NCBI GenBank assembly: GCA_040285745.1 | Contig: JAUFOR010000005.1 | Location: 1-64,000, forward strand | Direction: 5' to 3' | DNA length: 64,000 bases | Origin: Barthelona sp. PCE | Lineage: Eukaryota | Shown: one piece after another, positions 22,201 through 56,307 of the stretch | Numbering within the stretch: the stretch's first letter is position 1 | How the letters are laid out: the number at the start of each line of letters is the position of its first letter | Made by a program: the position numbers and the translations under genes | The notes under the pieces: generated by a model | Seen by the model: the letters and a program-made list of their open reading frames with translations, nothing else | Database searches by the model: none | Told to the model about the DNA's origin: nothing

Positions 22201-25200
22201 TCCATGATAGCGACAAATGAATCGTACCATCGGCGAAAGACTGCAATGGAAAGCAAGCCCTGGACAATACGACCGATTGAGTCGTCCACCGTTTTGATAT
22301 CCGAGACAAGTGATGGGGTCTTGGGAGTGTGCTGGCTAATATGCGCCTGTATCATATAAAATGCTTTTTCGATACTCTCATCGATGTCAGCGTTGTCTTC
22401 AGGCATGGGCTGCTCATATCCATAATCAATATCCTTCTCGTTTGAATAAAGAAGCTTACGAAACACAGATTTCTTGACTTTGAGACCTTTAACATCGTTT
22501 AAAATGTAAGGACAGCGCTCTTTGATAGCCAGGAACTCATCACGTTCATCGTCTCTAATACGCATTGATCGGAATTCATGAGCGCTGGCGAGCAAATAGA
22601 TCAGATCAGCAAAAGAAGGATCTTGTGATAATTGTGAGTTGAACAACTTCATGTTTCGAGATGGGATGTAATAGTGCGCTGCAATGCGTCCTAACTCCGT
22701 TGACATGAGATTACCTGAGAATTTATCATAATTGATCATTTGTAAAAGCTTGAGTTCACTGCAAGCAGCACGAACAAGCGCTTCCTTTGTAGCGAATTGT
22801 GTGGGATCAAACCCGAGTGAGGCCATTGAACTTCCATAAGCAGCAGGGTTTTTAAGAACACGGACACCAAAAAACGTGTAATTTAACCAAGATATGGCTT
22901 CTTGATCAGTTGTGATTGTTCCACGTACGATTTCAGCATTTAGATGGTCGTTTAGAGTCTCACACAACTGGCTCTCAATAGGTAGCGCCTCAACCATGCG
23001 ATGGTAGTAATGCTGGAATTTATCTGAAGTAGTGAAAAGATAGGCTGTTGCTTCCGTATCAAATTGTGGTCTGCCGGCACGCCCAAACATCTGCTCAATG
23101 TCTAGAACGTCAAGGTCATCAAACCTGTCACCGCGACGGACGGTCGTCCCGTTAATCATGACTACGGAGGCTGGAAGGTTGACGCCCCATGCGAGGGTCG
23201 CAGTTGAGATTAGGATCTGGACAGCGCCACCCAGAAAGAGGCTCTCAGCAAGTCTTCGGTCGGATTTATGCATGCCTGCATGATGGCAAAAGAAACCTGA
23301 CTCAAAAAGGACGTTGAGCGAACGATCACGTAACTTACGTGAAACTTGTTGGCGGTAGTAGCCCCAACTGTTGAGAGTTGTTTCAGCTGGGTGCATTAAG
23401 TGCTGTTTTCGGGCTTTTCCTATAAGATTGGCAAAAAATGTACACAAACGAACTGTTTCAGCACGTCCGTGAACGAAAATGATCATTTGCTGACCCTCCT
23501 CAAGGTGTTTAAGGATATACTCAAACATGAGTTCGTTACGGTACTGCTTTTTTGACCGAGGAGCCTTTGGAGGAAGATCCGAATATTCTATATCAGTCAG
23601 CATGTGTTGGACACCAATCACGATTTGGTTTAGAGGTACAGGACGATAGCGTGGGTCAAGGAAAACAATATCATCGTCATGCACGCGCATGAACTCCGCT
23701 ACATCTTTATAGTTAGGGAGCGTGGCACTCAAAGCAACGAGTCGTACAGTTAGCTGTAAAATTTCAACCTGACGAAGACAACGAGCAATGATAGCCTCTA
23801 TGACAGCACCTCTCTCACTTGCTAACAGATGAACTTCATCTATGAGTACAAGTTTAAGCTGTTTAAGGAGCTCACTATCAAGCGAACGTCGACTCAGAAT
23901 ATCCCACTTCTCTGGTGTGCACACGAGGAGTTGAGCAGTTGAAAGCTCTTGAGGTGAAATAGACGTATCACCAGTGACTTCTTTAACGATAACACCTAAC
24001 TTACGTAATCTTTTAACCATTTTTCCAAAGATCTCTGTAACTAGTGCTTTCATAGGAGCTAAATACACCATCTTGACATTCTTCAGTTTTTCACGATCAA
24101 ATTTCATACCAGATTCATCTACACAAGTTTGTAGCGTGCGCATCACAGTCAAAAATGCCACATTCGTTTTACCTGCACCGGTGGGAGCACAAACTAGTAA
24201 GTTCTTGTCAGTATTGAACGCTTTTTCGAATACTAGTGATTGTAAAGTGTTGAATCTCTCAAAGTCAAAGACACGACGCGTCATAGAAGGACAAGTTGAC
24301 ACAGGGATGAGGGAAACATTTGGTCTTGTAGCACCAAAGTGCTGAGGGGGTGGAATTGTGAACTTATTATGCTCATTACGAACGTTTTCAACAACAGCAC
24401 GCTTACGATTACGACCCATACCAATATTTCTGACGTTATCTTTGAAGAAGACATTCTCAGCTGATGTAGGGCCAGCAGTCAATCCGCTTTCGCGCTCCAT
24501 ACGTTCGTTAATATTCTTATTAGCCGTTTCGTGTACATTAGACTTTGCATCTTTCCTACTTTCTTTGATTGCTTCCATATTACAACTGATTGTTGTAATC
24601 AACTCCAAATGATCAAAGCCTAACAGCTCAACAAGGTGCATGCTCAGGACGTTCCCATCAATGCATGTGTCAAGCATTCCATTGAATGCCTCCATTACAT
24701 CGTTAAAATCAAGCGTAGAATTAGATGAACTCAATCCATTACGAATATCCTCTCGGATAGAAGAAAATGTAATAGTGTTTTCAAGTTCCGCCTCTTTCGC
24801 CTCCTCTGCAGGAGTTGGTTGTAGTAAATGATCGATATCGGTGGGAACGGTCTCGTTGCCCAAAAACTCTGGAGCTTTCTCCCAGTGATCGTGGTGATGG
24901 ACCATTGTCGTTGTGTTGTAAGTAGGGAACATATTCTGAACCGCATCATCGGAATACTGACCTTGTTTTATGATGTTTTGAATGTTGTTGCGAATAGTGA
25001 AAATGTTACGGAACTCAAAGAGCTTAATATCGAACCCGATAATAGCCTTGTATGTTTCCCACGATCTGTTACGTTCGTCTTTCAACTCTTTGAAAGCGTT
25101 AAATCCCAACATGACCAGATCCAAAAATTCTTGGGTGGGCAGTGCAGGAATTGCCCTTGAAGAAACAAATGAGTTGACAAATGCATACACCTCATCACGT

Positions 25201-25361
25201 AGCTCACTGAAAAGTACATAAGGAAGGCTTGATACATTTGGAAGCTCAGAGATTAGAAAAAGGCTAATTTGACGAGTAGAGGCCTTTTTAACATCAGACT
25301 TCGATGACACATCGTATTCAGGCCCCGTTACATGCTTCAAAATGTCTTGAAAAGATGACAT
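19206..25361 (-). CDS. ASCC3: Tandem Ski2-like helicase ASCC3/Slh1
   Basis: Two helicase-Sec63 cassettes (APTGAGKT/DEVH; APTGSGKT/DEIH); HYCPRMRQMNKP and SRRQTRLTA favour ASCC3 over Brr2. Confidence 0.9.
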   Translation of the reverse strand: MSSFQDILKHVTGPEYDVSSKSDVKKASTRQISLFLISELPNVSSLPYVLFSELRDEVYAFVNSFVSSRAIPALPTQEFLDLVMLGFNAFKELKDERNRSWETYKAIIGFDIKLFEFRNIFTIRNNIQNIIKQGQYSDDAVQNMFPTYNTTTMVHHHDHWEKAPEFLGNETVPTDIDHLLQPTPAEEAKEAELENTITFSSIREDIRNGLSSSNSTLDFNDVMEAFNGMLDTCIDGNVLSMHLVELLGFDHLELITTISCNMEAIKESRKDAKSNVHETANKNINERMERESGLTAGPTSAENVFFKDNVRNIGMGRNRKRAVVENVRNEHNKFTIPPPQHFGATRPNVSLIPVSTCPSMTRRVFDFERFNTLQSLVFEKAFNTDKNLLVCAPTGAGKTNVAFLTVMRTLQTCVDESGMKFDREKLKNVKMVYLAPMKALVTEIFGKMVKRLRKLGVIVKEVTGDTSISPQELSTAQLLVCTPEKWDILSRRSLDSELLKQLKLVLIDEVHLLASERGAVIEAIIARCLRQVEILQLTVRLVALSATLPNYKDVAEFMRVHDDDIVFLDPRYRPVPLNQIVIGVQHMLTDIEYSDLPPKAPRSKKQYRNELMFEYILKHLEEGQQMIIFVHGRAETVRLCTFFANLIGKARKQHLMHPAETTLNSWGYYRQQVSRKLRDRSLNVLFESGFFCHHAGMHKSDRRLAESLFLGGAVQILISTATLAWGVNLPASVVMINGTTVRRGDRFDDLDVLDIEQMFGRAGRPQFDTEATAYLFTTSDKFQHYYHRMVEALPIESQLCETLNDHLNAEIVRGTITTDQEAISWLNYTFFGVRVLKNPAAYGSSMASLGFDPTQFATKEALVRAACSELKLLQMINYDKFSGNLMSTELGRIAAHYYIPSRNMKLFNSQLSQDPSFADLIYLLASAHEFRSMRIRDDERDEFLAIKERCPYILNDVKGLKVKKSVFRKLLYSNEKDIDYGYEQPMPEDNADIDESIEKAFYMIQAHISQHTPKTPSLVSDIKTVDDSIGRIVQGLLSIAVFRRWYDSFVAIMELVHCVKLRTFPGSTCLLSVDRKCRPNQLITHDFNISPLEMRVMEAADFLEYTYSNSMAATLKALSERLPVFGVEYNLQPITIGVVRLNVKISCDMDWKGTRSVPTWLVVHDCNANLIISAELIQIVRSDEPLDITLMIPLVEQARNHEFTLSLLPESMMGCEFYLDLPVNELVFPHASNAHTELLPCTALKTSVVGNDRFSSIWSFNYFNPIQTQVFHSVFHHDDSLLLGAPTGSGKTVIAELALMRMVRSGDDSKCVYVAPLKALVNERARDWRKKFPYLRIIELTGESQPTPYEIERAHIICASPEKWDGVTRFWQRRRYVQRCSLVIMDEIHLLGTDRGAVLETIVCRMRYMAENLGKHVRFVGLSTALSNCEDVAEWLGVKRNFLFNFHAALRPVKLDVHLQGYSMQHYCPRMRQMNKPVFNALNQHAAGKPSIVFVASRRQTRLTAMDLIAFAVQSNDWLRWSRMDSVEAEMHANRAKDPALRDALVFGVGLHHAGLAKEDKMLVEELFLSQKILVLVSTSTLAWGLNFPAHCVIVKGTVFFDAKQCKFVDLPVTDVLQMIGRAGRPQFNDSGVALILTHTSKKPFWRQFLYEPFPVESALLPALPDFLNGEIATGAVSTVSDATRLIGKTYMAQRMRQNPSFYGLKAVSSQAIRSTIHDAVIRAVGLLKAAKCIDEEEGVLCITPFGTMAAYYYLSFRSIQLFCARIRFTRSLNDTLNMACSAAEFSEMPVRHNEDNLNEELAGHIRFPPKYGFDSPHVKTAMLLQCHFGHVALPISDYATDLFSALGQIVRVFQGVIDLSAEKKDLAVFRNTITLLQMSNQGIWYDSHPLTAFSAVTKHHALLLPNFRECVRLAHVGELRPVLFDAGIDSMGMKIIKKLKCLPYYTCTASYDDECITLIVDRGAPQIKNKKDEVRTLTHKLARSSNVESVFVYVHTLEEFITMKRQSIRSTTTTIAINTNLSSVSGDVFITIAPELYVGLEVSYLLKRKQ

Positions 25362-28617: not shown

Positions 28618-31161
28618 CTATAAAAAGTTGTGACCATCCTCATACATCTTTTGATATCTTAACAGGTCATTTCTAGTAATTACACCGCGCAGTGTACCCT
28701 GTTCAACAACCAAAACCACGCGGCAACCCAACTGTGAAAATATTCGCAGAAGACGCGAAGCGGTTGTTAAGGGAACAATTTGAGGAGGACTACTATCTAC
28801 TATGGAACTGAAACTGATAAAGTTGAAGTCCATGTATTGTGCCGGTATGCGGCCGTTAACGAACCGTATAGAATGTGTATGTAAAGACTGATTAACAGAA
28901 TCAATTTTTTTCTCCAATGTAGATCTTTCGATCCATCCAATTACAATGTTTTCATCTGTCACCACCGGGAACCCCTTGACAGATGTCTGTGTAAGCAATG
29001 ATCTGATAGAGATAACAGTCTCACCGAATGCTTTCAAAGCGACGGTTCGTTTACCTTTAATAAATTCAGTAACCGGGAAATCTTCAGAGGCCAACTCGTT
29101 GGTTAGGTAAGGGACGTTGTTGATACGCATGTGGTGCTCATAGATCGAATCATGATCAAAGCGATCAGCGATCCACTTACTAACAAACGCACCAATAAGC
29201 AGAGCAGGAGCAAGATCTATAGAGTCGGTCATTTCTATAACAATGACGCAGATGGATACGGTCATCTTCGTAACTGAGCTTAAGAATGAGATTGCACCGA
29301 CTAAGGGAAAAAAGTATGCATCACTGGTTGTGTTGAAAAGTGTTGTTATGCGGCCGAAGAATGCACCCATTAGTAGACATGGAATGAACAAACCAGAGGG
29401 AATCCTGCTGCCGAATGTTATAGCAGTTGTTAAAAAGATTATTGCAAAAGCTATCAACAACATAATGACGTTTTCACTGGATCGATGCGTGTCACACAAC
29501 ATTAACAATACCGTGTCACTTGTTTCACCATCGCAGCCAGACAGCACGATATCAAGCATATGGTGCAACGTACCACGTGTTAATAAATACGGGTAAGCAA
29601 GGATACTGGTTAATAGCGAAATACACATGACTTCCAAAACAGGGAACTTTGAAATCTTATCTTTTCTGATGTATCTGGTCCAAAGAACATTGACTTTAAT
29701 GAACATGGCACCGGCTATACCCATTACAATACCAATAAACACGTAATAAAAGAGAGAATCAAAAGAAAATGCTGCTGTGAATTTGAGAGGAATGAGTGCA
29801 ATGGAGCGAGAATGAGTTGGGTTGATGATGTGGAACACAGTATCAGATACAATGCTTGCGAAAAAGCTGTAAAAAAGAACCTTATGTTGGAAATAAGTAG
29901 ATGCTTCTTCTATCATAAACAGAATGCCACCAATTGGTGCGCCATTGAATGCAACACACACCCCTGCCGCTGTTGCTGCACTAATAAACTCCCTTTTAAC
30001 GACTTCGTTCTTCACCCTAAACAAACGCATCACCACAGAAGAGGAGAGCGCACTCGATATAGAAACAGTCGGGCCCTCCTTACCTAGGGAAAGACCAGCG
30101 CTGACACAGAAGACAATACCAACTGTTTTAACAACTAACGACCACAGCCCTAAAAATCCTTTTAGTCGAAAGCCAGCAAGAACAGATTTTGTTTCGGGGA
30201 TACCTGATCCAGCAGCAAATGGAGCAAGGTCTCGTACTAGGGTTGCGGCTATCCATACAAATACCAGTGATGCAACAACATATATTATGTACTGCATAGT
30301 GTGAGGTGATAAAGGTAAACTCTGTACGATAGGACTATTTTCCCAATCAATCCATTCGTTGCAGGCAATCTTATCAGCACAGCAGAGATCCCGCTGTAGG
30401 AATACATTATATGTACAATACCCTTCTCGCCATGTGGCTAGAACACCAGCTCCAATGTCAATCATTGAAGCAACAATTGCAGTCAACGAGCCAAGGATGA
30501 ATAGAATCACCCAGGGGCGAAGGACACCCCACCAACCCTGTTTCTTCTCTTCGTTATATGTATGGTTGAAGTGAAAGTCTATACTCTCAAAGTCCATAAC
30601 ACTCTGGCTCCTACTAATACCCGATGCTACACTTGTTGTGTGCCTGACAGCCTTTGTGTTCGGTGATAGTAACTCCTGTGTTACGCTTGTTGTGTCAGAA
30701 TATCCAGTTGAAGATCCACCACCACCCAATGTAGAAGGTGAAAGTGCTGGAGTTGGACTTAAATTCTTGGGTCTTACAAGAATTTCACTCTGAGAACGGG
30801 TAAAGAACTTCTCTACTAATTCATCTTCTGCAATAGAATCAACTTCACTTTCACTTGTTAATGAGTGTAAATCAAGGAAAATATCATCAAAATTTTTGGT
30901 CCCACCAGTGTATATGTTCTTTATAATAAGCTCCTGCTCATCTACTTCCTCTGCAATTGTTGCATCTTTCAGAGCATTGGCAAATTTGGCAGTAGTTGAT
31001 TCTACGCTCGAATTTGAGGAAGCAGATGCAATAGAAAGCCTCCTGTCCTGTTCTTTATGCCTAGGAAGTAACGGTATATCATCATTAACATCATTGTAGA
31101 GAAGCGTCTCAAATATTGAGTGAGTTGAGGACGCGCTTATCGTTGATAGACGTCTTGACAT
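28618..31161 (-). CDS. CLC chloride/proton antiporter (CLC-3/4/5-like) with CBS domains
   Basis: GSGIPE, GKEGP, FMIEE and GLFIP signature motifs; C-terminal CBS pair. Confidence 0.93.
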   Translation of the reverse strand: MSRRLSTISASSTHSIFETLLYNDVNDDIPLLPRHKEQDRRLSIASASSNSSVESTTAKFANALKDATIAEEVDEQELIIKNIYTGGTKNFDDIFLDLHSLTSESEVDSIAEDELVEKFFTRSQSEILVRPKNLSPTPALSPSTLGGGGSSTGYSDTTSVTQELLSPNTKAVRHTTSVASGISRSQSVMDFESIDFHFNHTYNEEKKQGWWGVLRPWVILFILGSLTAIVASMIDIGAGVLATWREGYCTYNVFLQRDLCCADKIACNEWIDWENSPIVQSLPLSPHTMQYIIYVVASLVFVWIAATLVRDLAPFAAGSGIPETKSVLAGFRLKGFLGLWSLVVKTVGIVFCVSAGLSLGKEGPTVSISSALSSSVVMRLFRVKNEVVKREFISAATAAGVCVAFNGAPIGGILFMIEEASTYFQHKVLFYSFFASIVSDTVFHIINPTHSRSIALIPLKFTAAFSFDSLFYYVFIGIVMGIAGAMFIKVNVLWTRYIRKDKISKFPVLEVMCISLLTSILAYPYLLTRGTLHHMLDIVLSGCDGETSDTVLLMLCDTHRSSENVIMLLIAFAIIFLTTAITFGSRIPSGLFIPCLLMGAFFGRITTLFNTTSDAYFFPLVGAISFLSSVTKMTVSICVIVIEMTDSIDLAPALLIGAFVSKWIADRFDHDSIYEHHMRINNVPYLTNELASEDFPVTEFIKGKRTVALKAFGETVISIRSLLTQTSVKGFPVVTDENIVIGWIERSTLEKKIDSVNQSLHTHSIRFVNGRIPAQYMDFNFISFSSIVDSSPPQIVPLTTASRLLRIFSQLGCRVVLVVEQGTLRGVITRNDLLRYQKMYEDGHNFL

Positions 31162-31493
31162 GTAAAAAGTAGAAATACGGGCCCTGAAGTTCAAAAAATG
31201 AACGAAAAGAGATGAATATGTATATTCAATTATAGAATCTCAAATAAACGTCTGAAAACTCCTAACTTAGGGTTCAAAGTCGAATGTGGTACACAATAAT
31301 ATGTACCAATGTAACATAGAACTGTCTAGCTTTTGACAATTGTGCAGGGTAGGGAGCGAATATCATAAAATTACATTTACCAACTATTTAGCCATACAAA
31401 AAACGCAATTCGCTACGTAAACAAATCTGTAATACTGAATACACCGTTTTATTTAATATCTCCCTTTCTTTGGCTTTCTGCACTAGTTTATTA

Positions 31494-41468: not shown

Positions 41469-44400
41469 CTACTGAAACTGTTTCATGCGTTCCTGCACCT
41501 GGTCGAGTGTAACTTGCTGTATTTGTGCCACGTTGCAATAACCATGATGCCCGCACGCTGGTGAAAGACAAGCAAAACAAAAATCACGAGCGCATGTAGA
41601 ACATTTCATGCTCTTGCATGCGCCTCCATGTTCGATAGGTGTCAGACAATTTGGGCAAATGCGCACAGAAGGCACATTTTCAATTTGGTTAAACTCAATT
41701 GTTATGAGTGGTGCATTTTGTAAGCGGTTGTTAAGTTCGTCGATATCATCTTTGTTCCACTGCGATAGACTTTGTGTTATAAGGAGTTTGAACTCATTCG
41801 GCAGAATACCTCGGATGGCAAGCGGAAGCCCTTCACGTACGCGCATAACACTGTTAGGCAATCTAAGTGTATGATCACAGAGGGAGACTGATGGTAGCAT
41901 GTTGTCAGCAGGCTGCAGAATTACAGTGAACGGGTTTAATTCAGATGAGCTGTTGAGCCAGTATACGAACTGAAGTAAATCAAGTGAGTTGAATCCCTGC
42001 ATCAGCTTACTAATAACATCACGTATATCGTTGGGCACCTCATCATTATAGTCAAGGGTGGAAAGGACCTGTTCAGCAGTAAAACGAGGAGGGCCACACA
42101 TAATTGACTTAATCTCAACGAAAGTTAGTGTGACTCCCAGTTGCGAAGTAAGTTCGTGCGAGTTGAATGTTGCGTTTATCTTGTTCGAAAGATCAACCCA
42201 AGGACATGAAACCATGTCACGTGCGAGCTGCATGAATTCTTCGATGTTGTCAGCTGTTACGGGCCGTTCCTCACCTCCGAAACAGTTGAAGTTCAGGTCA
42301 TCGTGCTTCAGCATGTTGAGAATGTACGCTGATTCGGTTGGGAATACCCTGTCAAAGACTGTTGCATCGGAAAGCTTGTCGAAGTCACCACTGATTGCGT
42401 TAAGCACGAACTGTCCCACCTGCACGTCGTCAACGGGTATCTGAAACACGAAACAACAATACAAAAAACCACAAATAGCATCTATTAGATCATCTGATGA
42501 TGATATTTTGATCTGAGGCAAAGAACGATACTCAAAAACATGGTCCACAAAATGAGCAAGAGATAGTTGTTCCATACCATGTAACTTAATAGTTGCGCCG
42601 AAATATTCAGCACTGTTCATGAATAGGTCTACATCGCCAAATACCCTCAAGAAAAAATCGTCAAAGGTTACCCCAGTTTGTACAAACTTCATTATATTTC
42701 CATCTCGCTCGTTATCGCGCAATAGCGCATGTTTAGCAACGACAAATTGGTTGATCTGGAGATTAATCAATGACAGGCGGTCATGTGTTATCGTATTAGT
42801 TCGCCATTCATGACAGCTCAGCTCATAGATAGATGGTCTTAAACGAGCATCGTGGGCTTGACAGCGTTGGATGATTTCAGAGTGTGCACAGTCATTATGC
42901 AAGATTAAATTTGAAATATCACTTCTGTCTTTAGCGAAAATATACCCAACGGTTTTTCCTAGTGAAAATATATCGCTCAAAAACGTGTGAGGCTGACCTT
43001 CTGTAACCTCCCTTGCCATATAACCGATAGTACCAACCATAGTACCACCCATAGTATGATTATTTGAGATACTGACACCAAAGTCACACATTTTGAGTTT
43101 GGGATTGGATCCATCCTCATTACAGAAGACAAGGACGTTCTGGGGCTTGAGGTCTCGCAGGATGATACCAGTGGCATGCATCATGAACACAGCCATCACT
43201 AACTGGTGAGCTAAAGTATTTCTAATTGAAAGATGGAGATCAGGGAAAGATCTAAGATATTGCTCAAGATCATATTGTGCATGCTCAAGCTCGATACAAA
43301 CGAACTTTAGTTTAACAGAACCCCGCTTAACCTCAGGAACGAATACCACATTTTTGAGTGCAACAGCAAATGGGTGAAGCTTGGTTAACACACGTAGCTC
43401 TCTTCGCAATGCCTTAAGATTAAAGTTCAGACTTTCTTCTGATAATCTTTTTGATACACATATACATTTGATAAACCGATCATTTTTCCTCTTAATTCCA
43501 TTGTTCAAACCGAAATCTTCCAGATCACCATTCAAATAACTATTAAAACTAATGATTTTTGGTAAGGTGGGAAACCTGATGGAAGATAGATGAAGCTCCT
43601 CTAAAGTTGCTGTCAGATCGACAGCAAGAGAGAACTCACAAATCAAATCATCAATCAATTTCAGATTGTTTTCAGATGTGGATAACAAATCTTGCTTTGC
43701 TCTCTCAAAATGTACGGTTTCACATGCGACGATGTCCACCCGATGTCGCTCTATTTGATCTCTTAACGAATAAAGCAAATCAAAATCAAACGGAGCAGGT
43801 TCTTCATCCTTTCCCAATGCTTCTCTGAATTCAAAAATTTGCTCAGAAATCTCGACCACATGTTTAGAACTTTTAATCAACGATGCGTTTTTATCCATTA
43901 ACAATGTAATAGAATTATGTATTCTATTTAACTCAATATCTATGCAATTATTAAAAACAATAAAATAAGCATCTAATTCCTCAAGTTCCTCCAACTTAGC
44001 AACATAAAGGTCCTCATTAAGTTCTTCTGCAATTGGAAATTCTTTAATTATGTCAGCAAAATAATTTGCATAAGTTGTACTCAAAGTATTTCTCAGATCA
44101 TAATCTTTAATTATTATATCTATACCATTAACAAATTCAAAAGTCATATCTAGATCATCAAGATGTTCTTCCATAGTTTCAACTTTAGGATTTGATGATA
44201 ACCATTTAAAAAAAGATTTTTGAGGTACATTCAGTTGTTTAATTGAGGTTGCACACTCATCAATTCGTTCTGTTAATGCAACAAACTCCGCATTACCCGT
44301 ATCAGGCACAATCTTGCTTAATGTATCTAGTATTATTTGTATCTTATTATTCAATTTTGATATCTTATTATTCATTTTTGATATCTTCAAATCAGTTTGA

Positions 44401-44627
44401 GATTTATATACTTGGTGTTCAATTTTTTCATTTTCAAATTCTTTTTTCAAATCTTCTTTCTCTTTAGATAAATTTAGTATGTCTAGTGCATTTTCATCAG
44501 AAAATTCAACAATTACTTCATATAGTTCAGATTTGACTTTTCCAATTGCAACACTTGTTTGTGCAAATTTTTTGTCAACCATAGTTTCATCATCATTACT
44601 GAAATTTGAAGAACCATAATTATTCAT
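41469..44627 (-). CDS. Coiled-coil + protein kinase + HECT-like + RBR RING2/IBR-like fusion protein
   Basis: Kinase LRDLKPQN, DFG, GTIGYMARE, DIFSLG; HECT-like GGEERPVTADNIEEF, LLQFV, LPSVSLCDHTLRLP; CPNC..PIEHGGACKSMKC..C..DFCFAC. Confidence 0.8.
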   Translation of the reverse strand: MNNYGSSNFSNDDETMVDKKFAQTSVAIGKVKSELYEVIVEFSDENALDILNLSKEKEDLKKEFENEKIEHQVYKSQTDLKISKMNNKISKLNNKIQIILDTLSKIVPDTGNAEFVALTERIDECATSIKQLNVPQKSFFKWLSSNPKVETMEEHLDDLDMTFEFVNGIDIIIKDYDLRNTLSTTYANYFADIIKEFPIAEELNEDLYVAKLEELEELDAYFIVFNNCIDIELNRIHNSITLLMDKNASLIKSSKHVVEISEQIFEFREALGKDEEPAPFDFDLLYSLRDQIERHRVDIVACETVHFERAKQDLLSTSENNLKLIDDLICEFSLAVDLTATLEELHLSSIRFPTLPKIISFNSYLNGDLEDFGLNNGIKRKNDRFIKCICVSKRLSEESLNFNLKALRRELRVLTKLHPFAVALKNVVFVPEVKRGSVKLKFVCIELEHAQYDLEQYLRSFPDLHLSIRNTLAHQLVMAVFMMHATGIILRDLKPQNVLVFCNEDGSNPKLKMCDFGVSISNNHTMGGTMVGTIGYMAREVTEGQPHTFLSDIFSLGKTVGYIFAKDRSDISNLILHNDCAHSEIIQRCQAHDARLRPSIYELSCHEWRTNTITHDRLSLINLQINQFVVAKHALLRDNERDGNIMKFVQTGVTFDDFFLRVFGDVDLFMNSAEYFGATIKLHGMEQLSLAHFVDHVFEYRSLPQIKISSSDDLIDAICGFLYCCFVFQIPVDDVQVGQFVLNAISGDFDKLSDATVFDRVFPTESAYILNMLKHDDLNFNCFGGEERPVTADNIEEFMQLARDMVSCPWVDLSNKINATFNSHELTSQLGVTLTFVEIKSIMCGPPRFTAEQVLSTLDYNDEVPNDIRDVISKLMQGFNSLDLLQFVYWLNSSSELNPFTVILQPADNMLPSVSLCDHTLRLPNSVMRVREGLPLAIRGILPNEFKLLITQSLSQWNKDDIDELNNRLQNAPLITIEFNQIENVPSVRICPNCLTPIEHGGACKSMKCSTCARDFCFACLSPACGHHGYCNVAQIQQVTLDQVQERMKQFQ

Positions 44628-44754
44628 CTGTTTAGGTTTCAATAAGGTATGAGTCCTACTGCTTCTTCGTCCCACCGTTTTTCGCATAATGAAAGAGAGA
44701 AAGATAATGAAAACGTGTTATTCGTTGTATATCCTCTTTAAGTAGGCAGTTATC

Positions 44755-46128
44755 ATGAACGTAACGGGCACACTGGGCAAAACAGCTGCAGCATGGCGGA
44801 TATTCATAAACAATGTAGGCAGCACAGGATTTTGGTTATTGTTTAGCTTTGTTTTATTATTTTTTGTTTGTTTCACAGTGTATCTCCTATGTGATAGGCA
44901 TAGGGTCGTCACAACATATTATTGTGGTGTTTCCGGATTTTTCTACACACTTTTAAGTATTCAACATCCATTATTACATTTCCCATTATTAGAGGTGGAT
45001 ATTGCAGTTTCATTACACATATCTGTGTATCTTACAATCTTATTAAGCGGCGTAGTATCAAAGAAAGGTGATAATTGGATAGTTCGAGGTTTGACATTCC
45101 CTGGATACTTTTTTATCAATACTTCTTTGTTATGGCTTGTTCTACTCCCGCTCACCGTATTCCTCCCAGAGATTACTATCATGATTAGTGTTTCGCTTGG
45201 TGGGTACGGTTTCTTCCAGGCTATAAATGTAAGTTATGAAAAAGTTACACTTTTACTTGATCAAACAATTGCATATCCCTCCTTACAGCGGCTAAAGACA
45301 AACATTGGAAGACAACACGATCCAAAGAAGCCTACTGAAGAAACAAAATCACCATTATTAGAAATTTTACATTTAGCTGATTTAGATGTTGGTCCATTTC
45401 TTTCATGTAAGCGTTGTGCTAGAACAATCGCAAAGATGTTGGTATTAAAACCTGATATGGTTGTTTTTACTGGAGATCTTGCAAGTCCAATGATGTCACA
45501 ATCTCGTTCTTTACATAAAGCTCTTGTTCCTCTAAAATCATATAATGGTCCGAAATATGCGGTGTTGGGTAACAAAGATCATTATAATAAGAAAAAAGTG
45601 ATTCAAGCTCTTGAAACAGTTGGTTTTATTGTGTTAAGTGATTCAGAAGACGTTGTTTCAATCACACGAAAGGATGGAACAGATATCAACGTCCAGGTTC
45701 TCGGATCGGCATTTCACACCAGTGATCCTCAATTGAAAATTAGAAGGTTATGCAAAACTCATGCACCTAAACATGAACATTTTAGATTATTACTCAGTCA
45801 TACACCTGAGCTATTCCACCACCTAAGCGGCTACAAGCACCTGAACCAGGCTGCATCCCAGAGCATCCCATCTCAAAAAAGAGGTCGTTTTCTTATTCAA
45901 GGTGATGCTGGCACTGGTTGTGATTTAGTTTTAGCAGGTCATACACATGGTGGTTTCTGGGGTCTGTCTTCCCTATTCAATGCCATCAACTTGGTCAGTA
46001 AGATTCCATCTCGTGGTTTTTGGGCGAATGGTACTTCACGGATGTACGTTTCAAGAGGATTGGGTTGTTGTGGTGCTCCAATGCGGTTGGGCATCTCCCC
46101 AGAGATATCGTTGCTCTCAATACAATAG
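44755..46128 (+). CDS. Membrane-anchored calcineurin-like metallophosphoesterase (YkuE/TMPPE-like)
   Basis: N-terminal TMs; HLADL, FTGDL, VLGN, LLSH.P, LAGHTHGG, YVSRGLG...P.RLG..PEI. Confidence 0.85.
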   Translation: MNVTGTLGKTAAAWRIFINNVGSTGFWLLFSFVLLFFVCFTVYLLCDRHRVVTTYYCGVSGFFYTLLSIQHPLLHFPLLEVDIAVSLHISVYLTILLSGVVSKKGDNWIVRGLTFPGYFFINTSLLWLVLLPLTVFLPEITIMISVSLGGYGFFQAINVSYEKVTLLLDQTIAYPSLQRLKTNIGRQHDPKKPTEETKSPLLEILHLADLDVGPFLSCKRCARTIAKMLVLKPDMVVFTGDLASPMMSQSRSLHKALVPLKSYNGPKYAVLGNKDHYNKKKVIQALETVGFIVLSDSEDVVSITRKDGTDINVQVLGSAFHTSDPQLKIRRLCKTHAPKHEHFRLLLSHTPELFHHLSGYKHLNQAASQSIPSQKRGRFLIQGDAGTGCDLVLAGHTHGGFWGLSSLFNAINLVSKIPSRGFWANGTSRMYVSRGLGCCGAPMRLGISPEISLLSIQ

Positions 46129-46226: not shown

Positions 46227-47768
46227 ATGAACAGCATATACCTTTTTGGAAGGAAAGTGAGTACATGGAACAATGATGTGCATCAAAAACGATATACTTT
46301 GAACAAAGCCATGTACGGGATTTGCAAAGATGATATTCCCAAGGAACTACACAATTGTGAAGATTTCACTATTGTAGAAATAGTATTCTCAAATGTTGTG
46401 AACTTTGACACCCAAGTCCTACCTCGTTTACAGGCCTATGGAAAAGTTATGTTCACTTTCCAGCACATTAGGACACAGGACGCTCAGGGATATCTTGTGC
46501 AGTATGAAGATATTATTGGAGCAGCAACTTGTTTTGACAATTGTGCAGATATGGAATGTTTAGTATTAATGAACAATGATTTGGGCGAATTAGGTCTCGA
46601 CCAAAGAGATTCATGGTTAGAACATCCTCGTACAAGCCTTTTTATAGGTTGGGCAGAACGACCAGAGTTAGATGAAGCAGGTTTAATGGAATATATAGCT
46701 CAAAAGATTGGAGTATACTGTAAGACAATTAGGCTTCCACGCGAGAGATCAAATGCTTTTCTTGATTTTAATAATACAAAGGATTGTTGCACAGTATATA
46801 AGCATTTAAGTAAGACACATAATTTATATACACCTTTACCAAAGGTACAATTCTATACGTTAGGGCTTTTATCACACCCTATCCTCGGCCCACAACTGAA
46901 GTATGCTGATGGTAAACCACGTAAGCAACACAGTGAAAATATGGGGAGGATAGCATTGTTTTTGGGTGATCATCACGATATGACAGAAGAAGATCTTTAT
47001 GATTTGTTTAACAAGTATCCAGGGTTTACACGTGTGAAATGTAAGCGGTTTGTTGAGTATGATTCTTTAGGTGATGCACGTCATGCGTTTATCGAGTTAT
47101 ATGAAATGTTCAAGGTTAGAAATCTTAAATTGCAGTGGGCTGAGACTAGTAATCAGCCTTCTATCCATGATAAAGATTTTGAAAACACAGGTCGTGGCGG
47201 TAATATGCGTAGGAGTCATTCTGGTCATGTTAGTAATGATTTATGTGAGTTATATTGGCGTTGTGAACATAGTATCTCTGAGGATAAGCTCAAGATTATT
47301 CTTCGAAATCCAAAAGATATAACTCGTATGAAACTCGCCAATGATCGTGGTTGGGCACGTTATGACACGCATATGGATGCAGAAGCAGTACTGACACAAG
47401 TTGATGGTCGGTCAATCGAGGGTAGTGGATGGATCATCCAGTGGAAGAAGAAGAAGACACGTAGGAGTCGTGGTAATAGTCATGGTGGAATGCCTTATAA
47501 ACAACAGTATACTGATTATGGTCCTCAATATACTCATGCGCAATATCCTATGTATGAATACAGACAGCGTAATAATTATCGCCAGGGTCGTAACAACGGA
47601 TATCCGCCTCACAATCACCATCATCAACCCCATCATCAACCTCACTATCATCAGTATCAGGCACCTCCTCATTATGGTCAACCTCAACATCATCATCATC
47701 AACAGCAGCAACACCAACACCAGCCTCCACACCAGCCTCAACATCAACACCAGCAGTACTACCAATAA
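46227..47768 (+). CDS. Multi-RRM-like RNA-binding protein with Q/H/P/Y-rich tail
   Basis: RRM-like blocks (SLFIG..NAFLDF, ALFLG..FVEYDS, GWARYD) and low-complexity C-terminus. Confidence 0.75.
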   Translation: MNSIYLFGRKVSTWNNDVHQKRYTLNKAMYGICKDDIPKELHNCEDFTIVEIVFSNVVNFDTQVLPRLQAYGKVMFTFQHIRTQDAQGYLVQYEDIIGAATCFDNCADMECLVLMNNDLGELGLDQRDSWLEHPRTSLFIGWAERPELDEAGLMEYIAQKIGVYCKTIRLPRERSNAFLDFNNTKDCCTVYKHLSKTHNLYTPLPKVQFYTLGLLSHPILGPQLKYADGKPRKQHSENMGRIALFLGDHHDMTEEDLYDLFNKYPGFTRVKCKRFVEYDSLGDARHAFIELYEMFKVRNLKLQWAETSNQPSIHDKDFENTGRGGNMRRSHSGHVSNDLCELYWRCEHSISEDKLKIILRNPKDITRMKLANDRGWARYDTHMDAEAVLTQVDGRSIEGSGWIIQWKKKKTRRSRGNSHGGMPYKQQYTDYGPQYTHAQYPMYEYRQRNNYRQGRNNGYPPHNHHHQPHHQPHYHQYQAPPHYGQPQHHHHQQQQHQHQPPHQPQHQHQQYYQ

Positions 47769-51312: not shown

Positions 51313-51699
51313 TGGAAGTTTGTAAAAAACTGGATATCAAACCATGACCACATTTTGTTGACCAAAAGATCGTTATGTTTTGCGTTTTATGTGGTCACAG
51401 TGTGTACTACCCATATAAACTTATCCTAAAAGTATATTCAGAAGAATCGTTTTCTTAGCATTTTTTTTAATATACACTTCATTGTTATGTATGATTTGCT
51501 TTATACAGACTGTCTATGTTGTAAAAATATGTGTATTGGAAATTTTTTAGTTAGGTTCACTTCATTTTTCAAACATTGGCATTATTTTTGTATCAAGATA
51601 TCTGTATTATGGCTGGAAACAAAGGGTACTGTTTATAAAAGTCTTAGAAATTAATATAGCATGTTTTTTTTTGTATATTCCATTTCAACGCACAAATCG

Positions 51700-54600
51700 A
51701 TGAGTTTTGTCGAAAGCAATCGATTAGTTCAAAAAACCGCCATTTCATCGACATCACAAGTACACAGGGGCTTGAAGAAACAAAGAATTTTCCCTAACAC
51801 AACATTCGATGCAAATTCGTTGATGAAACCGTTGAGCGCTGAACTTACAACACTAGGGACACAAAAACCACATATGCAAGTTGAGAAACAGAAGATCGCT
51901 GAACCGAAACAATTAGAGAAGTTTTCTATTCGATATTTACCTTCTAAATATCGTCCGGAGAAGGTTTCAATGGGTATTTCCGAGCGTGTGGCAGAACGAA
52001 CTCTTCATAGAACAAGAGAAGAGATTCATAATGAACGTTTAGAATATTTTGGCAAGAATGTTGAACAGTACCAGAAGGATATCAGACTGCATTGCATTGA
52101 CTACCACGAATGCCTCATGTATGATCTAAAACAATCTGAGATACATCTTAAAGATGTTCTTAATAACATCAATTTTGATGTCTTATCGACCTTAACAGAA
52201 CGAGAGATGGATCGTTACTGGTATGATAACTTCCAGGTCGTTCTAGACGGTCACGTGCAGCTGAGAGAGACCTATTCTACTGAAATTGAGCAAGCAACCA
52301 AGAGATTAAAAGAATATCTTGGTGAATTAACAAAGAATATTGTATATGATTTAGTTAAGAATGCTTTTAAATTACCAGACGCAATCAAAGCTGATATCAA
52401 GTTCAGAGTTGATGGTGCTAATGAAACAGTTGAAGATTTTTGTTTAAAGAGTCAAGTTCGTTTAGACACATTTACTGAAAAAGTTGATTCTATTGCTGTT
52501 TATTTCAAAACACAGTATGCAGAGATGTTAGAGAAGTGGAAGCGTCAGGCGAAGGCAGTTCGTCTTGGTCGTTTTGTAGATACAGTTTTTACTCGTGAAT
52601 TTGTTTTTTCTCCTGCTTTCCGTGATTCAGTAACTAATTTTAGTACAGAGATGAGGAACAGTTGTAAGGATATCATGACAATTGTGCAAAGATTGAGCAT
52701 ATGTGACATGAATCATGTCTCTCCTGAAGAAATGAGTAGCATAGCGGAGGAAGTTAAGAGCGTATCAAATGGTATGAAGGAACATGCCAATGCACTTAAG
52801 GAAGTACTCACCACCCATCTTCTTGATGATCTTAACACACGTTTTTCAGATTTATTACGGGAGACCATTGAGGGATTGTATTATATTATATCCAAAGGAG
52901 TTCAGGAAGTTGAACCAGATTTGGATATTTTAAAGCAGTGTATGGATATGACGCCCGAAACTCTTGAAATAGAGAAGGATGTAGTTATTATTCAAGTATA
53001 TGAGATTTATAATACTTTGTTTGGTCAATTAGAGAACATTATTAATGTTTATACTGAGCACTGTGAACGTGTTAACGGGTGCATTGATGCTCAGACGCAT
53101 GAGAACACTAATATAATTGAGATTTTTGTTGAGAATCGATCAAAAATAATTGATTATGTGAGTACATATCGTATCGGTCAACAAGAGAAGTATGACAAGC
53201 ATATCTTTGAGCAACAGCATGCATTTAAGCAACTTGATGTTGATGTTGAAGAGATGGAAAATGAATTCATGAAATTTGTAAGTGAAATTATGACTTGTAG
53301 TTCAAAAAAAATGTTATTTGAGAGAAAAGAGGAAGCAGAAAATGTTCTTAAGAAGATTGAGGATAGGTACAAGGATTTTTCAACCGATCTTGCAAGTACA
53401 AACTCTAATTCACTTGATGGCATTATCCAGTCTTCTGTTGAGACGGTTAATGAGTTTTTGATGGCTCAACAGTTGAATGTGACACGTGTTGAGTTGAAAA
53501 AGGGTCTGCTATCTCCAGATCATGGGTCTGTACGCTCAAAAAAGAGCACCAAGCGCAGCGGACGAGGTTCACAAAGGAAGAGTGCAAGACGCAGTTCAAG
53601 AAGAACGTTGACACCGCCTCCAGATCTCGTTCCATATATATTTGATTTTAAGCAGGTTACCGAAGAACTTGTTGTATCAGGTGCACGTATTTCAGAGAGT
53701 ACCGAAGAACAACAACGAACAATAAGTATAGAGAATGTATTTGAACTTGTTCGTTCGTCTAAATATCCAAATCTTTCACCATTATCAGCTGAAACCTCAG
53801 AAGCAACAACAACTCCCGTTGTTGAAGAGAAAGAAAAAAAGAAAAAGGACAAGAAGAAGAAAAAAGAAGTTGTTGATACTCCGATTCAAACGTCTGTTCT
53901 TCCTGCTCTTCCCAATATCTCAATGACAAATGACGCGAGTGAATACAAGAAGGAGTATGAAGTGATCACAGCACGTGCTCTCTCATCACGTACCCTCTCA
54001 GCAAAGAGTGAAGAGGTTGAAGAGGTTGTCGAAGAGGTTATCGAAGAAGAAGTCGGTGAAGTCTTACTGACGGATTTCAGATTGCCTTCGTTCTTATTTG
54101 AGGATCTACTTGAGACCTTTTTAAGTGATGTAATTCGTTTTTTCATTGCAGATCGTGAAGTACGTTATCTAAATTGTGAAGAATCATGTCTGGAATTTGT
54201 TAAACGTAGTGACGGTTTAGTATCTATTGCTCTCCGTGAGATCCAACCCCGATACAACGAGTTGAGGCTGGGGGTTGTTGAGCCACGCGAGAAAGAGTTA
54301 ATGCAGCATTCTCGTTCTGTAGACAGAGTTGTTAGTGGTATTGCAGCACGGGCATTACAATATATTAAGCGATTAGAACAAGGTGTTATTGAATCTGAAA
54401 GTGTATGTAGTGAACTGGAACAGAGAAGCGAAAAGTCAATTATTAATATGCATCGGTGTACAACATCCAATTCTCTTATGATTTTACTGAGAGAATTTGA
54501 GCGTAATTATCTGATCTCAGAGAAGGAATTGGGAGCAGTGCAGGATAAATGGAAGGATAAACTTACACATTGGCGAAACGAATTGGCTTCTATTGGTAGA

Positions 54601-56307
54601 AAGTTTCTAATGTCCCTCTCAAATCGACCTTCATCTGCTTTAAATACTGCACGTAGCATGGTAACAACGATGACAGGTATGACGGGTGTGCGCTCGAGCA
54701 CGTTTGTTCCTGAAGAAATAGAACATTTTGAGCAGTTAATCAATGCTTGTCTTGAAAGTATTGCAGAATCGTTTGATTCGGAGAAGATTAATATTGATGA
54801 TCAGCACAATACTTCACTTACCCGTTTGAGTGAGATTAAGGCTGCTTATGATGAATCTGTTAAAAATCACCAGGAAGACCTGAAGGTTACTGATGAGATT
54901 CAAGCAATCATGAATCATGGTTTTGGAGCATTAAGAACTGAATTTTCAGCATCAATGATGAATTTATCAACAATATCAAGACTTTTGAATGAACTTAAGA
55001 GTATAGTTGATGGTGAAGCTTATGTTCCTAATAAGGTTATCCGTATTATAAGTGATTTATCTGACGCTATTTATGCTCAGGGTACACGGGCAGATTTAAT
55101 TCGTGAAGATCCATACGTCAAGCCTGTATTTGAAAAGGATAGTGAGTATGCTTCAGTTAGTAAGATGAAACCAATATGTGAAAAAATTATTTCAGATAAT
55201 ATTAAGGAAGTTAAAGAAAAGTTTTCTTCATATTATAAGGCATTAAAACGTGACACAACACTACCAGAATTATTACCTCAAAAGACTGAAGATCAGGCTG
55301 CTATTGTTAACAAACATGAAACACGTATGAGTGAACAGTTGAGAGAACATCTCATTGATGGAGAGATTGCATTTCGTCAAAACCTCAGTGTTTTACTATC
55401 ATATATCCAGAAATTACCGCATGCTTTAGTTGAATCGATCAATAAGACTGTTTCTACTCTTAGTGATAAGATCAGTGCATCAGATATTGAAATTAAAGAA
55501 AAATTAGTTCAGTTAAAGAATGATCGAAATACTCTTTTGAAGAGACTTCCTGGACCAATGGCTGGTAATTGGGCGAATGAAGTTGTTGAAGCTTTACGTC
55601 TTGAAGAAGCAAAAGGAAGTGTTAGTGTTAAAAATACGATTGAAAATTTGGTTCAACAACAATCATCAGCAATAGTAGAAAGTTGGAGTCAAAAAGTACG
55701 TCGTATTGCGATTGAAATGTTTCAATTAGGTGAAATTTATGATAAACTTTTATTTAAGGAACATACCAAAGCGTTACATCCTGATATAGATCCTAATGAA
55801 GTCAATATGATAACTCAAAAAGATGTACGTCGTATGATGTTGGAGAGACAGCTTAACAAACAAGAGCTTGAGGAATCAAGAAGTGGGACTGATAAGTCTA
55901 AAGGTGTATTTGAAAAGCATACATGGTTAGAAATTCAATTGAAGCTTGAAACAAGAATTTCTAAACAAGAAGAAGAGGCACCAAAAGAAGCACCAAAGAA
56001 GGGAGCTGCAAAACGTGGTAAGAAGAGTGGTCGACAACAAGCTACAAAAGGTGCTTCTAAAGTGGATTCACTTGAGGAATCCGTTGCTGCTCAACCTCTA
56101 AACGTTCTTAATGTGCCTTCTCAGGATACCAGTCTATCACCTGCTCATCGTTCAGTAGATATTGTACGCCGTGTTTATTTGACCGAACTAACTGAAGAAA
56201 CCCAAGCTCATTTGGATCGGACAATAGACACTCTTGATGAATTCATCAAAAAGGAAGCAATGTGGGTACAAGATTGGGACTATCAACTTGCTCTACGTTT
56301 GCAATAA
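51700..56307 (+). CDS. Large coiled-coil protein, CCDC180/CFAP76-like
   Basis: About 1535 aa, coiled-coil with central low-complexity region; C-terminal H....R.VY...IK....W...W pattern recalls CCDC180. Confidence 0.6.
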   Translation: MSFVESNRLVQKTAISSTSQVHRGLKKQRIFPNTTFDANSLMKPLSAELTTLGTQKPHMQVEKQKIAEPKQLEKFSIRYLPSKYRPEKVSMGISERVAERTLHRTREEIHNERLEYFGKNVEQYQKDIRLHCIDYHECLMYDLKQSEIHLKDVLNNINFDVLSTLTEREMDRYWYDNFQVVLDGHVQLRETYSTEIEQATKRLKEYLGELTKNIVYDLVKNAFKLPDAIKADIKFRVDGANETVEDFCLKSQVRLDTFTEKVDSIAVYFKTQYAEMLEKWKRQAKAVRLGRFVDTVFTREFVFSPAFRDSVTNFSTEMRNSCKDIMTIVQRLSICDMNHVSPEEMSSIAEEVKSVSNGMKEHANALKEVLTTHLLDDLNTRFSDLLRETIEGLYYIISKGVQEVEPDLDILKQCMDMTPETLEIEKDVVIIQVYEIYNTLFGQLENIINVYTEHCERVNGCIDAQTHENTNIIEIFVENRSKIIDYVSTYRIGQQEKYDKHIFEQQHAFKQLDVDVEEMENEFMKFVSEIMTCSSKKMLFERKEEAENVLKKIEDRYKDFSTDLASTNSNSLDGIIQSSVETVNEFLMAQQLNVTRVELKKGLLSPDHGSVRSKKSTKRSGRGSQRKSARRSSRRTLTPPPDLVPYIFDFKQVTEELVVSGARISESTEEQQRTISIENVFELVRSSKYPNLSPLSAETSEATTTPVVEEKEKKKKDKKKKKEVVDTPIQTSVLPALPNISMTNDASEYKKEYEVITARALSSRTLSAKSEEVEEVVEEVIEEEVGEVLLTDFRLPSFLFEDLLETFLSDVIRFFIADREVRYLNCEESCLEFVKRSDGLVSIALREIQPRYNELRLGVVEPREKELMQHSRSVDRVVSGIAARALQYIKRLEQGVIESESVCSELEQRSEKSIINMHRCTTSNSLMILLREFERNYLISEKELGAVQDKWKDKLTHWRNELASIGRKFLMSLSNRPSSALNTARSMVTTMTGMTGVRSSTFVPEEIEHFEQLINACLESIAESFDSEKINIDDQHNTSLTRLSEIKAAYDESVKNHQEDLKVTDEIQAIMNHGFGALRTEFSASMMNLSTISRLLNELKSIVDGEAYVPNKVIRIISDLSDAIYAQGTRADLIREDPYVKPVFEKDSEYASVSKMKPICEKIISDNIKEVKEKFSSYYKALKRDTTLPELLPQKTEDQAAIVNKHETRMSEQLREHLIDGEIAFRQNLSVLLSYIQKLPHALVESINKTVSTLSDKISASDIEIKEKLVQLKNDRNTLLKRLPGPMAGNWANEVVEALRLEEAKGSVSVKNTIENLVQQQSSAIVESWSQKVRRIAIEMFQLGEIYDKLLFKEHTKALHPDIDPNEVNMITQKDVRRMMLERQLNKQELEESRSGTDKSKGVFEKHTWLEIQLKLETRISKQEEEAPKEAPKKGAAKRGKKSGRQQATKGASKVDSLEESVAAQPLNVLNVPSQDTSLSPAHRSVDIVRRVYLTELTEETQAHLDRTIDTLDEFIKKEAMWVQDWDYQLALRLQ

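Follow-up and report, generated by a model that had tools for sequence, protein, structure and literature searches.

The main ubiquitin ligases (E3 enzymes) that carry ubiquitin on a cysteine of their own form two families, HECT and RBR, which have been treated as separate solutions, and in canonical HECTs the free C-terminal tail aids aminolysis. A gene of Barthelona sp. PCE, a free-living anaerobic metamonad, raises the question of whether the catalytic modules of both families can stand in one polypeptide, and of how two such cysteines might then work. The gene lies on the minus strand of the window analysed here, a stretch of 64,000 nucleotides (GenBank assembly GCA_040285745.1, contig JAUFOR010000005.1, positions 1 to 64,000), and an original prediction, made from the DNA alone, read it as a protein kinase followed by a HECT domain and the RING2 (Rcat) finger of an RBR ligase. 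The Barthelona genome, at 10.2 Mbp, is described as the smallest known among free-living eukaryotes (PMC11316075).

The gene is single, intact and intron-less, and its open reading frame runs without interruption across 1072 codons of raw DNA:

41469..44687, minus strand: whole open reading frame, 1072 amino acids plus stop, with an alternative start at Met21 (44625-44627)

The identical 1072-residue protein is already recorded in the protein collection. Of the span originally proposed for the gene (41469-44627), the lower end is correct; the upper end, 44627, is the second in-frame ATG (Met21), and the frame itself begins at 44687. The encoded order is a long helix, a helical domain, a kinase, a compact HECT domain (with Cys937), a two-helix linker, a RING2/Rcat finger (with Cys1024, without the RBR histidine) and a last helix. 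A Pfam scan of the whole protein returns Pkinase, HECT and IBR in the predicted order, each above its curated cut-off (31.7, 23.9 and 24.3 bits, respectively).

The HECT assignment rests on domain profiles, modelled fold and alignment to a genuine HECT protein. Pfam HECT matches residues 754-959 (E 1.5e-6, 28.5 bits; profile positions 58-298 of 306), and six of the nine members scanned of the Barthelona family to which the protein belongs match it at E ≤ 0.01, the best at 2.2e-9. A first AlphaFold2 model of residues 640-1072, built from nine sequences, has a predicted local distance difference test score (pLDDT) of 56.6, with values below 50 from fragment residue 270 onward (the C-terminal lobe, or C-lobe, and the finger), and served for comparison of the N-terminal lobe (N-lobe) and of the whole HECT only. 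Foldseek searches with this model gave 68 matches at E ≤ 0.001, every match listed being a HECT E3, and VIA-align placed fragment residues 1-324 (protein residues 640-963) on entire HECT domains with Z scores of 10.6-8.0, all of the best 50 being HECTs (against NEDD4 524-894, Z 10.5, with 299 residues aligned and a root-mean-square deviation (rmsd) of 7.7). That the middle region should model as a HECT had been set beforehand as a test, and both methods return HECTs. A search of the ESM Atlas with residues 640-1072 gave no usable match. Fold searches using a full-length AlphaFold2 model (21 paralogs as input; mean pLDDT 78.6, and 72-89 over the C-lobe) are dominated by kinases, and the UBR5 HECT appears among these at E 3e-9.

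41787..42770, minus strand: HECT domain, complete but compact, residues 640-967 (N-lobe ~640-855, C-lobe ~856-967), by Pfam, Foldseek, VIA-align and profile match
41877..41879, minus strand: codon of Cys937, HECT catalytic position, aligned to the Trichomonas HECT Cys and retained by 14 paralogs out of the 20 whose sequence reaches this column

The family profile also matches HECTD3 in the PDB (E 3.4e-4) and, in a library of 1.84 billion protein representatives clustered at 50% identity, a Trichomonas HECT protein (E 1.8e-8) that itself matches Pfam HECT at 5.8e-50. hhalign aligns the family with this protein (probability 97, E 1.2e-10), placing LPSVSLCDHTLRLPNS on LPTVSTCGRFLKMPRY, and the Cys937 motif LPSVSLCDHTLRLP aligns with LPTVSTCGRFLKMP, Cys on Cys, in agreement with the catalytic-position cysteine of the original prediction. 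The compact HECT-like region of that prediction is indeed a HECT, and only its limits have to be redrawn. A HECT limited to residues ~729-946 is too short and was rejected, as the model aligns residues 640-963 to whole HECT domains. With its true span of ~640-967 (41787-42770), the domain is complete, at ~328 residues.

The finger at the C-terminal end is matched by Pfam IBR over residues 1000-1049 (E 4.6e-6, 27.0 bits). The family profile meets solved RBRs through its own last finger only, the partner being their RING2/Rcat: that of ARIH1 (PDB 1wd2, E 5.1e-5; residues 344-380 of the full-length protein), CUL9 (2235-2275), parkin (RING2), ARIH2 (295-330) and HOIL-1. For CUL9, the Rcat scores +24.0 bits against the family profile, versus -9.3 bits for the IBR. 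The finger, CPNC...IEHGGACKSMKC, aligns without gaps to ARIH1 RING2, CPKC..IEKDGGCNHMVC (PDB 1wd2), and in alignments to solved Rcats Cys1024 takes the catalytic Cys position and Ser1026 that of the His; the RING2 identity, the retained Cys and the His-to-Ser replacement had all been read correctly from the sequence.

41535..41663, minus strand: RBR-type RING2 (Rcat) zinc finger, residues 1009-1051, CPNC-x9-C-x4-C-x2-C-x4-C-x2-C-x4-C-x-H-x3-C
41616..41618, minus strand: codon of Cys1024, Rcat catalytic position, on the catalytic Cys of RBR Rcats and kept in 15 of 17 fingers
41610..41612, minus strand: codon of Ser1026, in place of the RBR His, aligned to the His two residues past the catalytic Cys

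Among the library matches listed, the best outside the family for the finger is an oyster RNF217-like RBR (E 3.2e-15), and the non-family finger matches examined are C-terminal fingers of RBR proteins. Neither a RING1 nor a separate IBR was detected by Pfam at E ≤ 1 over the whole protein, residues 1000-1049 being the one IBR-type stretch.

The protein is one of at least 21 paralogs (labelled P00nn) that make up the family, all from Barthelona sp. PCE, encoded on at least seven contigs and annotated merely as 'hypothetical protein'. The count is a lower bound drawn from protein collections, with 14 proteins from a word-seeded search and seven from an exhaustive profile search; the 21 paralogs total 27,868 residues, equivalent to ~0.8% of the 10.2-Mbp genome. 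In the family tree, the window copy is sister to P0009 (Shimodaira-Hasegawa-like approximate likelihood ratio test, SH-aLRT, 98). The finger is present in 17 paralogs, 13 of which carry both cysteines. Two fingers, those of P0019 and P0021, have no Rcat Cys. At the HECT Cys column, P0013 and P0015 have Val, P0018 has Ala, P0019 and P0020 have Ser and P0021 has Thr; the other 14 of 20 members retain this Cys together with the LPxxxxC...LP motif, and they include the deep branches P0016 and P0017. Because the domain order recurs in the 13 paralogs with both cysteines, the fusion is not a mis-join. P0012 ends ...GILQNGFNAL, its last four residues opening with the conserved Phe at exactly -4, and is the only paralog to end in this way.

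Conservation is unevenly spread along the chain. Among the 15 members whose finger retains its Cys, mean pairwise identity is 0.30 in the helical domain, 0.48 in the kinase, 0.51 in the HECT N-lobe, 0.60 in the C-lobe, 0.58 in the linker and 0.61 in the finger; by this measure, constraint is strongest at the ligase end, finger included, and the N-terminal part has the greatest freedom to vary.

Outside the family, HECT part and finger were found together in no other organism among the best 150 of 673 matches in the library, which may not include sister genera. Within these 150 matches, 135 cover the finger region alone, and Pfam scans of ten non-family matches gave nine with IBR and without HECT, one with HECT and without IBR, and none with both. 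The architecture had been called unfamiliar at the outset, and among the library matches listed HECT plus finger is indeed confined to the Barthelona family. No description of a HECT-then-Rcat fusion was found in the portions of the literature consulted, though supplementary architecture tables of surveys could contain one; in the main text of the Barthelona genome paper, the words ubiquitin, kinase and HECT have no occurrences.

How should such a protein be classified? It is like canonical HECTs (NEDD4, E6AP, HUWE1, UBR5, HECTD3; PF00632) in the bilobal fold of residues 640-963, in the LPxxxxC..L.LP motif with its Cys aligned and in a Phe at Cys+29. Unlike them, it has an internal HECT, with 135 residues after Cys937 and 105 after the HECT domain, the latter including a second thioester-type module, whereas the Trichomonas HECT protein ends ~30 residues past its own Cys. 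Its HECT domain is also shorter (~328 residues, versus ~375 in the aligned solved chains) and very divergent in sequence. According to the authors of a survey, HECTs require a C-terminal position for activity and never acquire C-terminal domains (PMC4327156). With RBRs (ARIH1/HHARI, ARIH2, parkin, CUL9, HOIL-1, RNF217) the protein shares the Cys spacing, the matched catalytic Cys and the signatures IE-x-x-G-x-C-x-x-M-x-C and FC-x-x-C common to RBR Rcats and the Barthelona finger, and all nine finger-only library matches scanned carry IBR; it differs from RBRs in having a HECT where RING1-IBR would be, and Ser for His. Since there is no RING1-IBR-RING2 supradomain and the HECT precedes the finger, the protein is not an RBR; it is a HECT superfamily member with an appended Rcat-like module. 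What is new is the succession of HECT and Rcat in one chain, assembled from known modules, which would amount to a new mechanistic class only if a relay between them were demonstrated.

The third module is a protein kinase:

42786..43580, minus strand: kinase domain, residues 370-634 (Pfam Pkinase), with Lys407, Glu430, Asp512, Asn517 and Asp535

Pfam Pkinase matches residues 406-585 (E 8.9e-22, 78.2 bits). By fold, VIA-align ranks FES first (residues 354-632; Z 22.9, 245 residues aligned, rmsd 3.1), followed by IRAK4, RIPK, Roco4 and BRAF, while ULK1, Aurora and CaMK1 lead the matches by sequence and Foldseek, ULK1 being the top Foldseek match (E 3.3e-10). The catalytic residues are all there: Lys407 (beta3), Glu430 (alphaC), Asp512 (in the LRD that replaces HRD), Asn517 and Asp535 (DFG). 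The substitutions of HRD by LRD and of APE by ARE, noted at the outset, are seen in ILRDLKPQN and YMAREV. No GxGxxG glycine loop is found upstream of Lys407 (the sequence reads YLNGDLEDFGLNNG, and the Pfam alignment begins at profile position 29), and kinase activity is for this reason plausible, not assured. The kinase is probably active but atypical; 17 of the 21 paralogs have intact equivalents of Lys407, Asp512 and Asp535.

The full-length AlphaFold2 model places a tail (1-66), a helix (67-124) and an all-helical domain (130-365) ahead of the kinase (370-634), and, behind it, shows residues 640-967 as a region rich in helices that gives way to a small lobe of mixed alpha/beta structure; C-terminal to residue 967, it shows two linker helices, short beta-hairpins (994-1037) and a final helix.

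44490..44687, minus strand: N-terminal tail, residues 1-66, of low confidence (pLDDT <50 over residues 1-69)
44316..44489, minus strand: one long helix, residues 67-124, a candidate coiled coil (AlphaFold2 secondary structure, helix 67-124)
43593..44300, minus strand: all-helical domain, residues 130-365 (pLDDT ~85-92), the most variable part of the family (mean pairwise identity 0.30)
41664..41786, minus strand: linker, residues 968-1008, with two helices (963-975 and 979-990; mean pairwise identity 0.58)
41472..41534, minus strand: C-terminal segment, residues 1052-1072, with a closing helix at 1061-1071 (AlphaFold2) and the conserved ending ...RMxxFQ

The coiled-coil N-terminus of the original prediction fits the long modelled helix at 67-124, through which the proteins might oligomerize, with transfer in trans from one paralog to another. 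The helical domain (130-365) has no Pfam match at E ≤ 1. Most paralogs are longer than the window copy, at ~1300-1600 residues, with an additional ~340-400 residues at the N-terminus that give weak WD40/beta-propeller Pfam matches under the cut-off (EML, NWD2 and CDC20 types). This propeller-like region is absent from P0003 as well as from the window copy, residue 20 of which aligns to about residue 338 in P0009 and P0002 and to residue 353 in P0005. In P0004, a ~29-residue unit rich in Lys, Glu and Gln, QKSEIEMKLQKQKKDMEDQKSEMQMNFES, is repeated four times in tandem within the coiled-coil segment (residues ~440-560). The closely related sister P0008 carries fewer of these repeats, and the length of the helix thus differs between near-identical paralogs.

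How, then, might the two cysteines act together? The mechanism that we favour, with its variants included and at a little less than even confidence, is a Cys-to-Cys relay from HECT to Rcat. Such a relay, with the HECT standing in for RING1 and the kinase in control, had been put forward in the original prediction. The ubiquitin-conjugating enzyme (E2) carrying ubiquitin would dock on the HECT N-lobe and charge Cys937. As the chain runs on for 105 residues past the HECT domain, loading of Cys937 is expected to be normal and its discharge altered: these residues would take the place of the free tail, and ubiquitin would mostly not be passed directly from Cys937 to lysine. A tethered Rcat with a conserved non-ligand Cys makes the obvious next acceptor, and ubiquitin would pass to its Cys1024 either in cis or across a coiled-coil oligomer; the docked E2 might also charge Cys1024 itself, as a parallel route. 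From the Rcat, ubiquitin would finally reach the target, with the kinase and the variable N-terminal parts providing regulation and target choice. A relay fits the retention of both cysteines in 13 of the 17 finger-bearing paralogs and the high conservation of C-lobe and finger.

Several observations weigh against the relay, and they are taken up here together with the rival explanations on which they bear. One concerns the residue two positions past the Rcat Cys, which is His in none of the 15 members whose finger has the Cys (Ser in 12, and Asn, Arg and Met in one each). In RBRs, loss of this His leaves loading intact and impairs transfer to lysine; its absence here leaves room for unusual acceptor chemistry. 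Another concerns the end of the HECT domain:

41790..41792, minus strand: codon of Phe966, 29 residues past Cys937, a candidate HECT '-4 Phe' in an internal position, aligned to the P0012 Phe

Glu965 stands immediately before Phe966, and an acidic side chain is able to replace the HECT C-terminal carboxylate, as stated in a review that also cites the '-4 phenylalanine' paper (PMC13196369); under this rule, the Barthelona HECT may ligate alone. A third is P0012, which retains the HECT Cys and, lacking a finger, stops as canonical HECTs do, with Phe at -4. P0012 is nested among finger-bearing members in the tree, and looks like a secondary truncation back to the canonical HECT end.

These points speak for a serious rival, to us somewhat unlikely, in which the HECT is the sole catalytic centre. 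The finger would then be an IBR/RING2-like zinc module without catalysis of its own, serving to bind ubiquitin, to position the acceptor or substrate, or to auto-inhibit the HECT, and Cys1024 would be structural. The catalytic His of RBRs is absent; no RING1 was detected that could deliver an E2 to the finger; Glu965-Phe966 could provide the acidic group and the Phe that normally come from the HECT tail; and P0012 resembles a working canonical HECT without a finger. HECTs with an accessory domain to hold the acceptor ubiquitin are known, an example being UBR5 with its UBA domain (PMC13196369). A merely structural finger is harder to reconcile with a sequence far closer to Rcat than to IBR (the CUL9 comparison above), with a non-ligand Cys kept in 15 of 17 fingers, including those of paralogs just 24-28% identical overall, and with P0013 and P0015, which retain the Rcat Cys after loss of the HECT Cys.

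P0013 and P0015 also count against the relay from the opposite side, as the HECT Cys column holds Val in both, yet their Rcat is complete (the Cys and every ligand are there) and their kinase is intact. Together with P0012, they indicate that the two sites can each persist alone, and that a relay in cis is therefore not obligatory family-wide. They would be explained if the Rcat were the real active site and the HECT mainly a dock for E2~ubiquitin in place of RING1-IBR, with Cys937 dispensable or ancestral, and a finger conserved at least as well as the HECT C-lobe agrees with this. Such an arrangement, the other serious rival, appears improbable, given that 14 members out of 20 still have the HECT Cys and the LPxxxxC...LP motif, even those as deeply branching as P0016 and P0017, and that the conservation of the C-lobe equals that of the finger; moreover, no Rcat is known to us that takes its ubiquitin from an E2 docked on a HECT N-lobe.

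The remaining points against the relay concern the kinase, the model and the window copy itself. Both cysteines persist in the kinase-dead members P0004, P0006 and P0016, and regulation in cis by the kinase is therefore not general across the family. The inter-domain geometry in the full-length model is not confident (predicted template modelling score, pTM, 0.44), and a predicted complex of HECT (fragment residues 1-328) and finger (362-433), run without alignments, scored 0.00 and counts neither way. The window copy lacks the ~340-400-residue propeller-like region of its paralogs and begins directly after it, which, with the loss of catalytic residues or whole modules in P0012, P0014 and P0018-P0021, might suggest a decaying or non-enzymatic copy, a family consisting entirely of scaffolds or pseudo-enzymes, or an annotation artefact. 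We give this explanation very little credence: the frame is open over 1072 codons in raw DNA, the key kinase, HECT and Rcat residues are all present in the window copy, the same domain order is found in each of the 13 paralogs that have both cysteines, and it is the E3 part that is conserved best.

The relay has a partial parallel in the RING-Cys-relay (RCR) ligase MYCBP2 (PHR1), which relays ubiquitin Cys-to-Cys and esterifies threonine; a His-less Rcat with non-lysine chemistry is thus conceivable. MYCBP2 and the mechanism proposed here have in common a pair of cysteines on a single chain and internal transthiolation ahead of discharge, a likeness of mechanism that carries no claim of homology, but MYCBP2 uses a RING and a tandem-cysteine domain, neither HECT nor Rcat. 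The RCR family is named in PMC8453484. By extension, the Barthelona proteins could be thioester E3s of a new class, 'HECT-Cys-relay' ligases, in which the HECT Cys hands ubiquitin or a ubiquitin-like protein to the tethered, His-less Rcat of its own chain or, within coiled-coil oligomers, to that of a different paralog; the acceptor on the target would possibly be a non-lysine nucleophile, the protein's own kinase would gate the reaction, and the fast-evolving propeller and helical sensor region would aim it. In this full form the proposal is an unlikely one.

Other systems combine some of the same elements. CUL9 is described as having two cooperating E3 modules within one polypeptide (PMC13061254), and CUL9 and the ARIH-cullin 'E3-E3' assemblies resemble the Barthelona protein in that two different E3 modules cooperate; they pair a cullin-RING with a complete RBR, whereas the Barthelona chain carries a HECT, an isolated Rcat and a kinase. 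Kinase-bearing divergent HECTs of Naegleria gruberi and Ectocarpus siliculosus were placed in a 'GL-Bikonta' family by Grau-Bove et al. 2013 (PMC3673628). These, compared by description only, likewise have a kinase and a highly divergent HECT in one protist protein, but their description there mentions no terminal finger. None of the Naegleria or Ectocarpus kinase-HECTs is among the best 150 of the 673 profile matches. In the PINK1-parkin system, a kinase switches on a Rcat-type ligase, the two being separate proteins; a protein kinase is again paired with a Rcat-type ligase in Barthelona, but with both in one chain. The Barthelona kinase is not specifically PINK1-like, PINK1 ranking 38th (Z 19.9) among generic kinase matches by VIA-align.

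The surroundings of the gene are those of a eukaryotic genome. A prokaryotic or viral origin of the window was considered and rejected, its neighbours being ordinary eukaryotic genes, unrelated and tightly packed:

44755-46128, plus strand: membrane metallophosphoesterase, divergent, 67 bp from the start of the open reading frame, with a hydrophobic N-terminal half followed by a calcineurin-like domain (Pfam Metallophos 2.5e-9)
46227-47768, plus strand: RRM-domain protein (2.2e-9), its long C-terminal tail of low complexity and rich in His, Gln and Pro
19206-25361, minus strand: Brr2/SNRNP200-type helicase, 2051 amino acids, with two DEAD and two Sec63 units
51661-56307, plus strand: DUF4455 and DUF4456 protein, 1548 amino acids, with matches near the cut-offs
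28618-31194, minus strand: CLC chloride channel with a CBS domain, an ordinary eukaryotic gene

A further neighbour encodes a MIF4G-like protein, with a score under the cut-off. G+C in the window peaks at the gene for the Brr2-type helicase (0.45-0.47, versus ~0.35-0.40 elsewhere), and the DUF4455/DUF4456 and CLC genes show the compact, apparently intron-less packing of the genome.

In the Barthelona family, the catalytic modules of the HECT and RBR families and a kinase are united in one chain, and the rule that HECTs bear no C-terminal domains is broken in at least 17 genes of one organism. If both cysteines are active, the family would offer a natural test of HECT discharge without a free tail, of a Rcat working without RING1-IBR and of relay between unrelated sites, and would provide a compact, intron-less and easily expressed system for transthiolation studies. 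Even if only one site is active, it represents a striking lineage-specific expansion, of 21 genes and ~0.8% of the genome.

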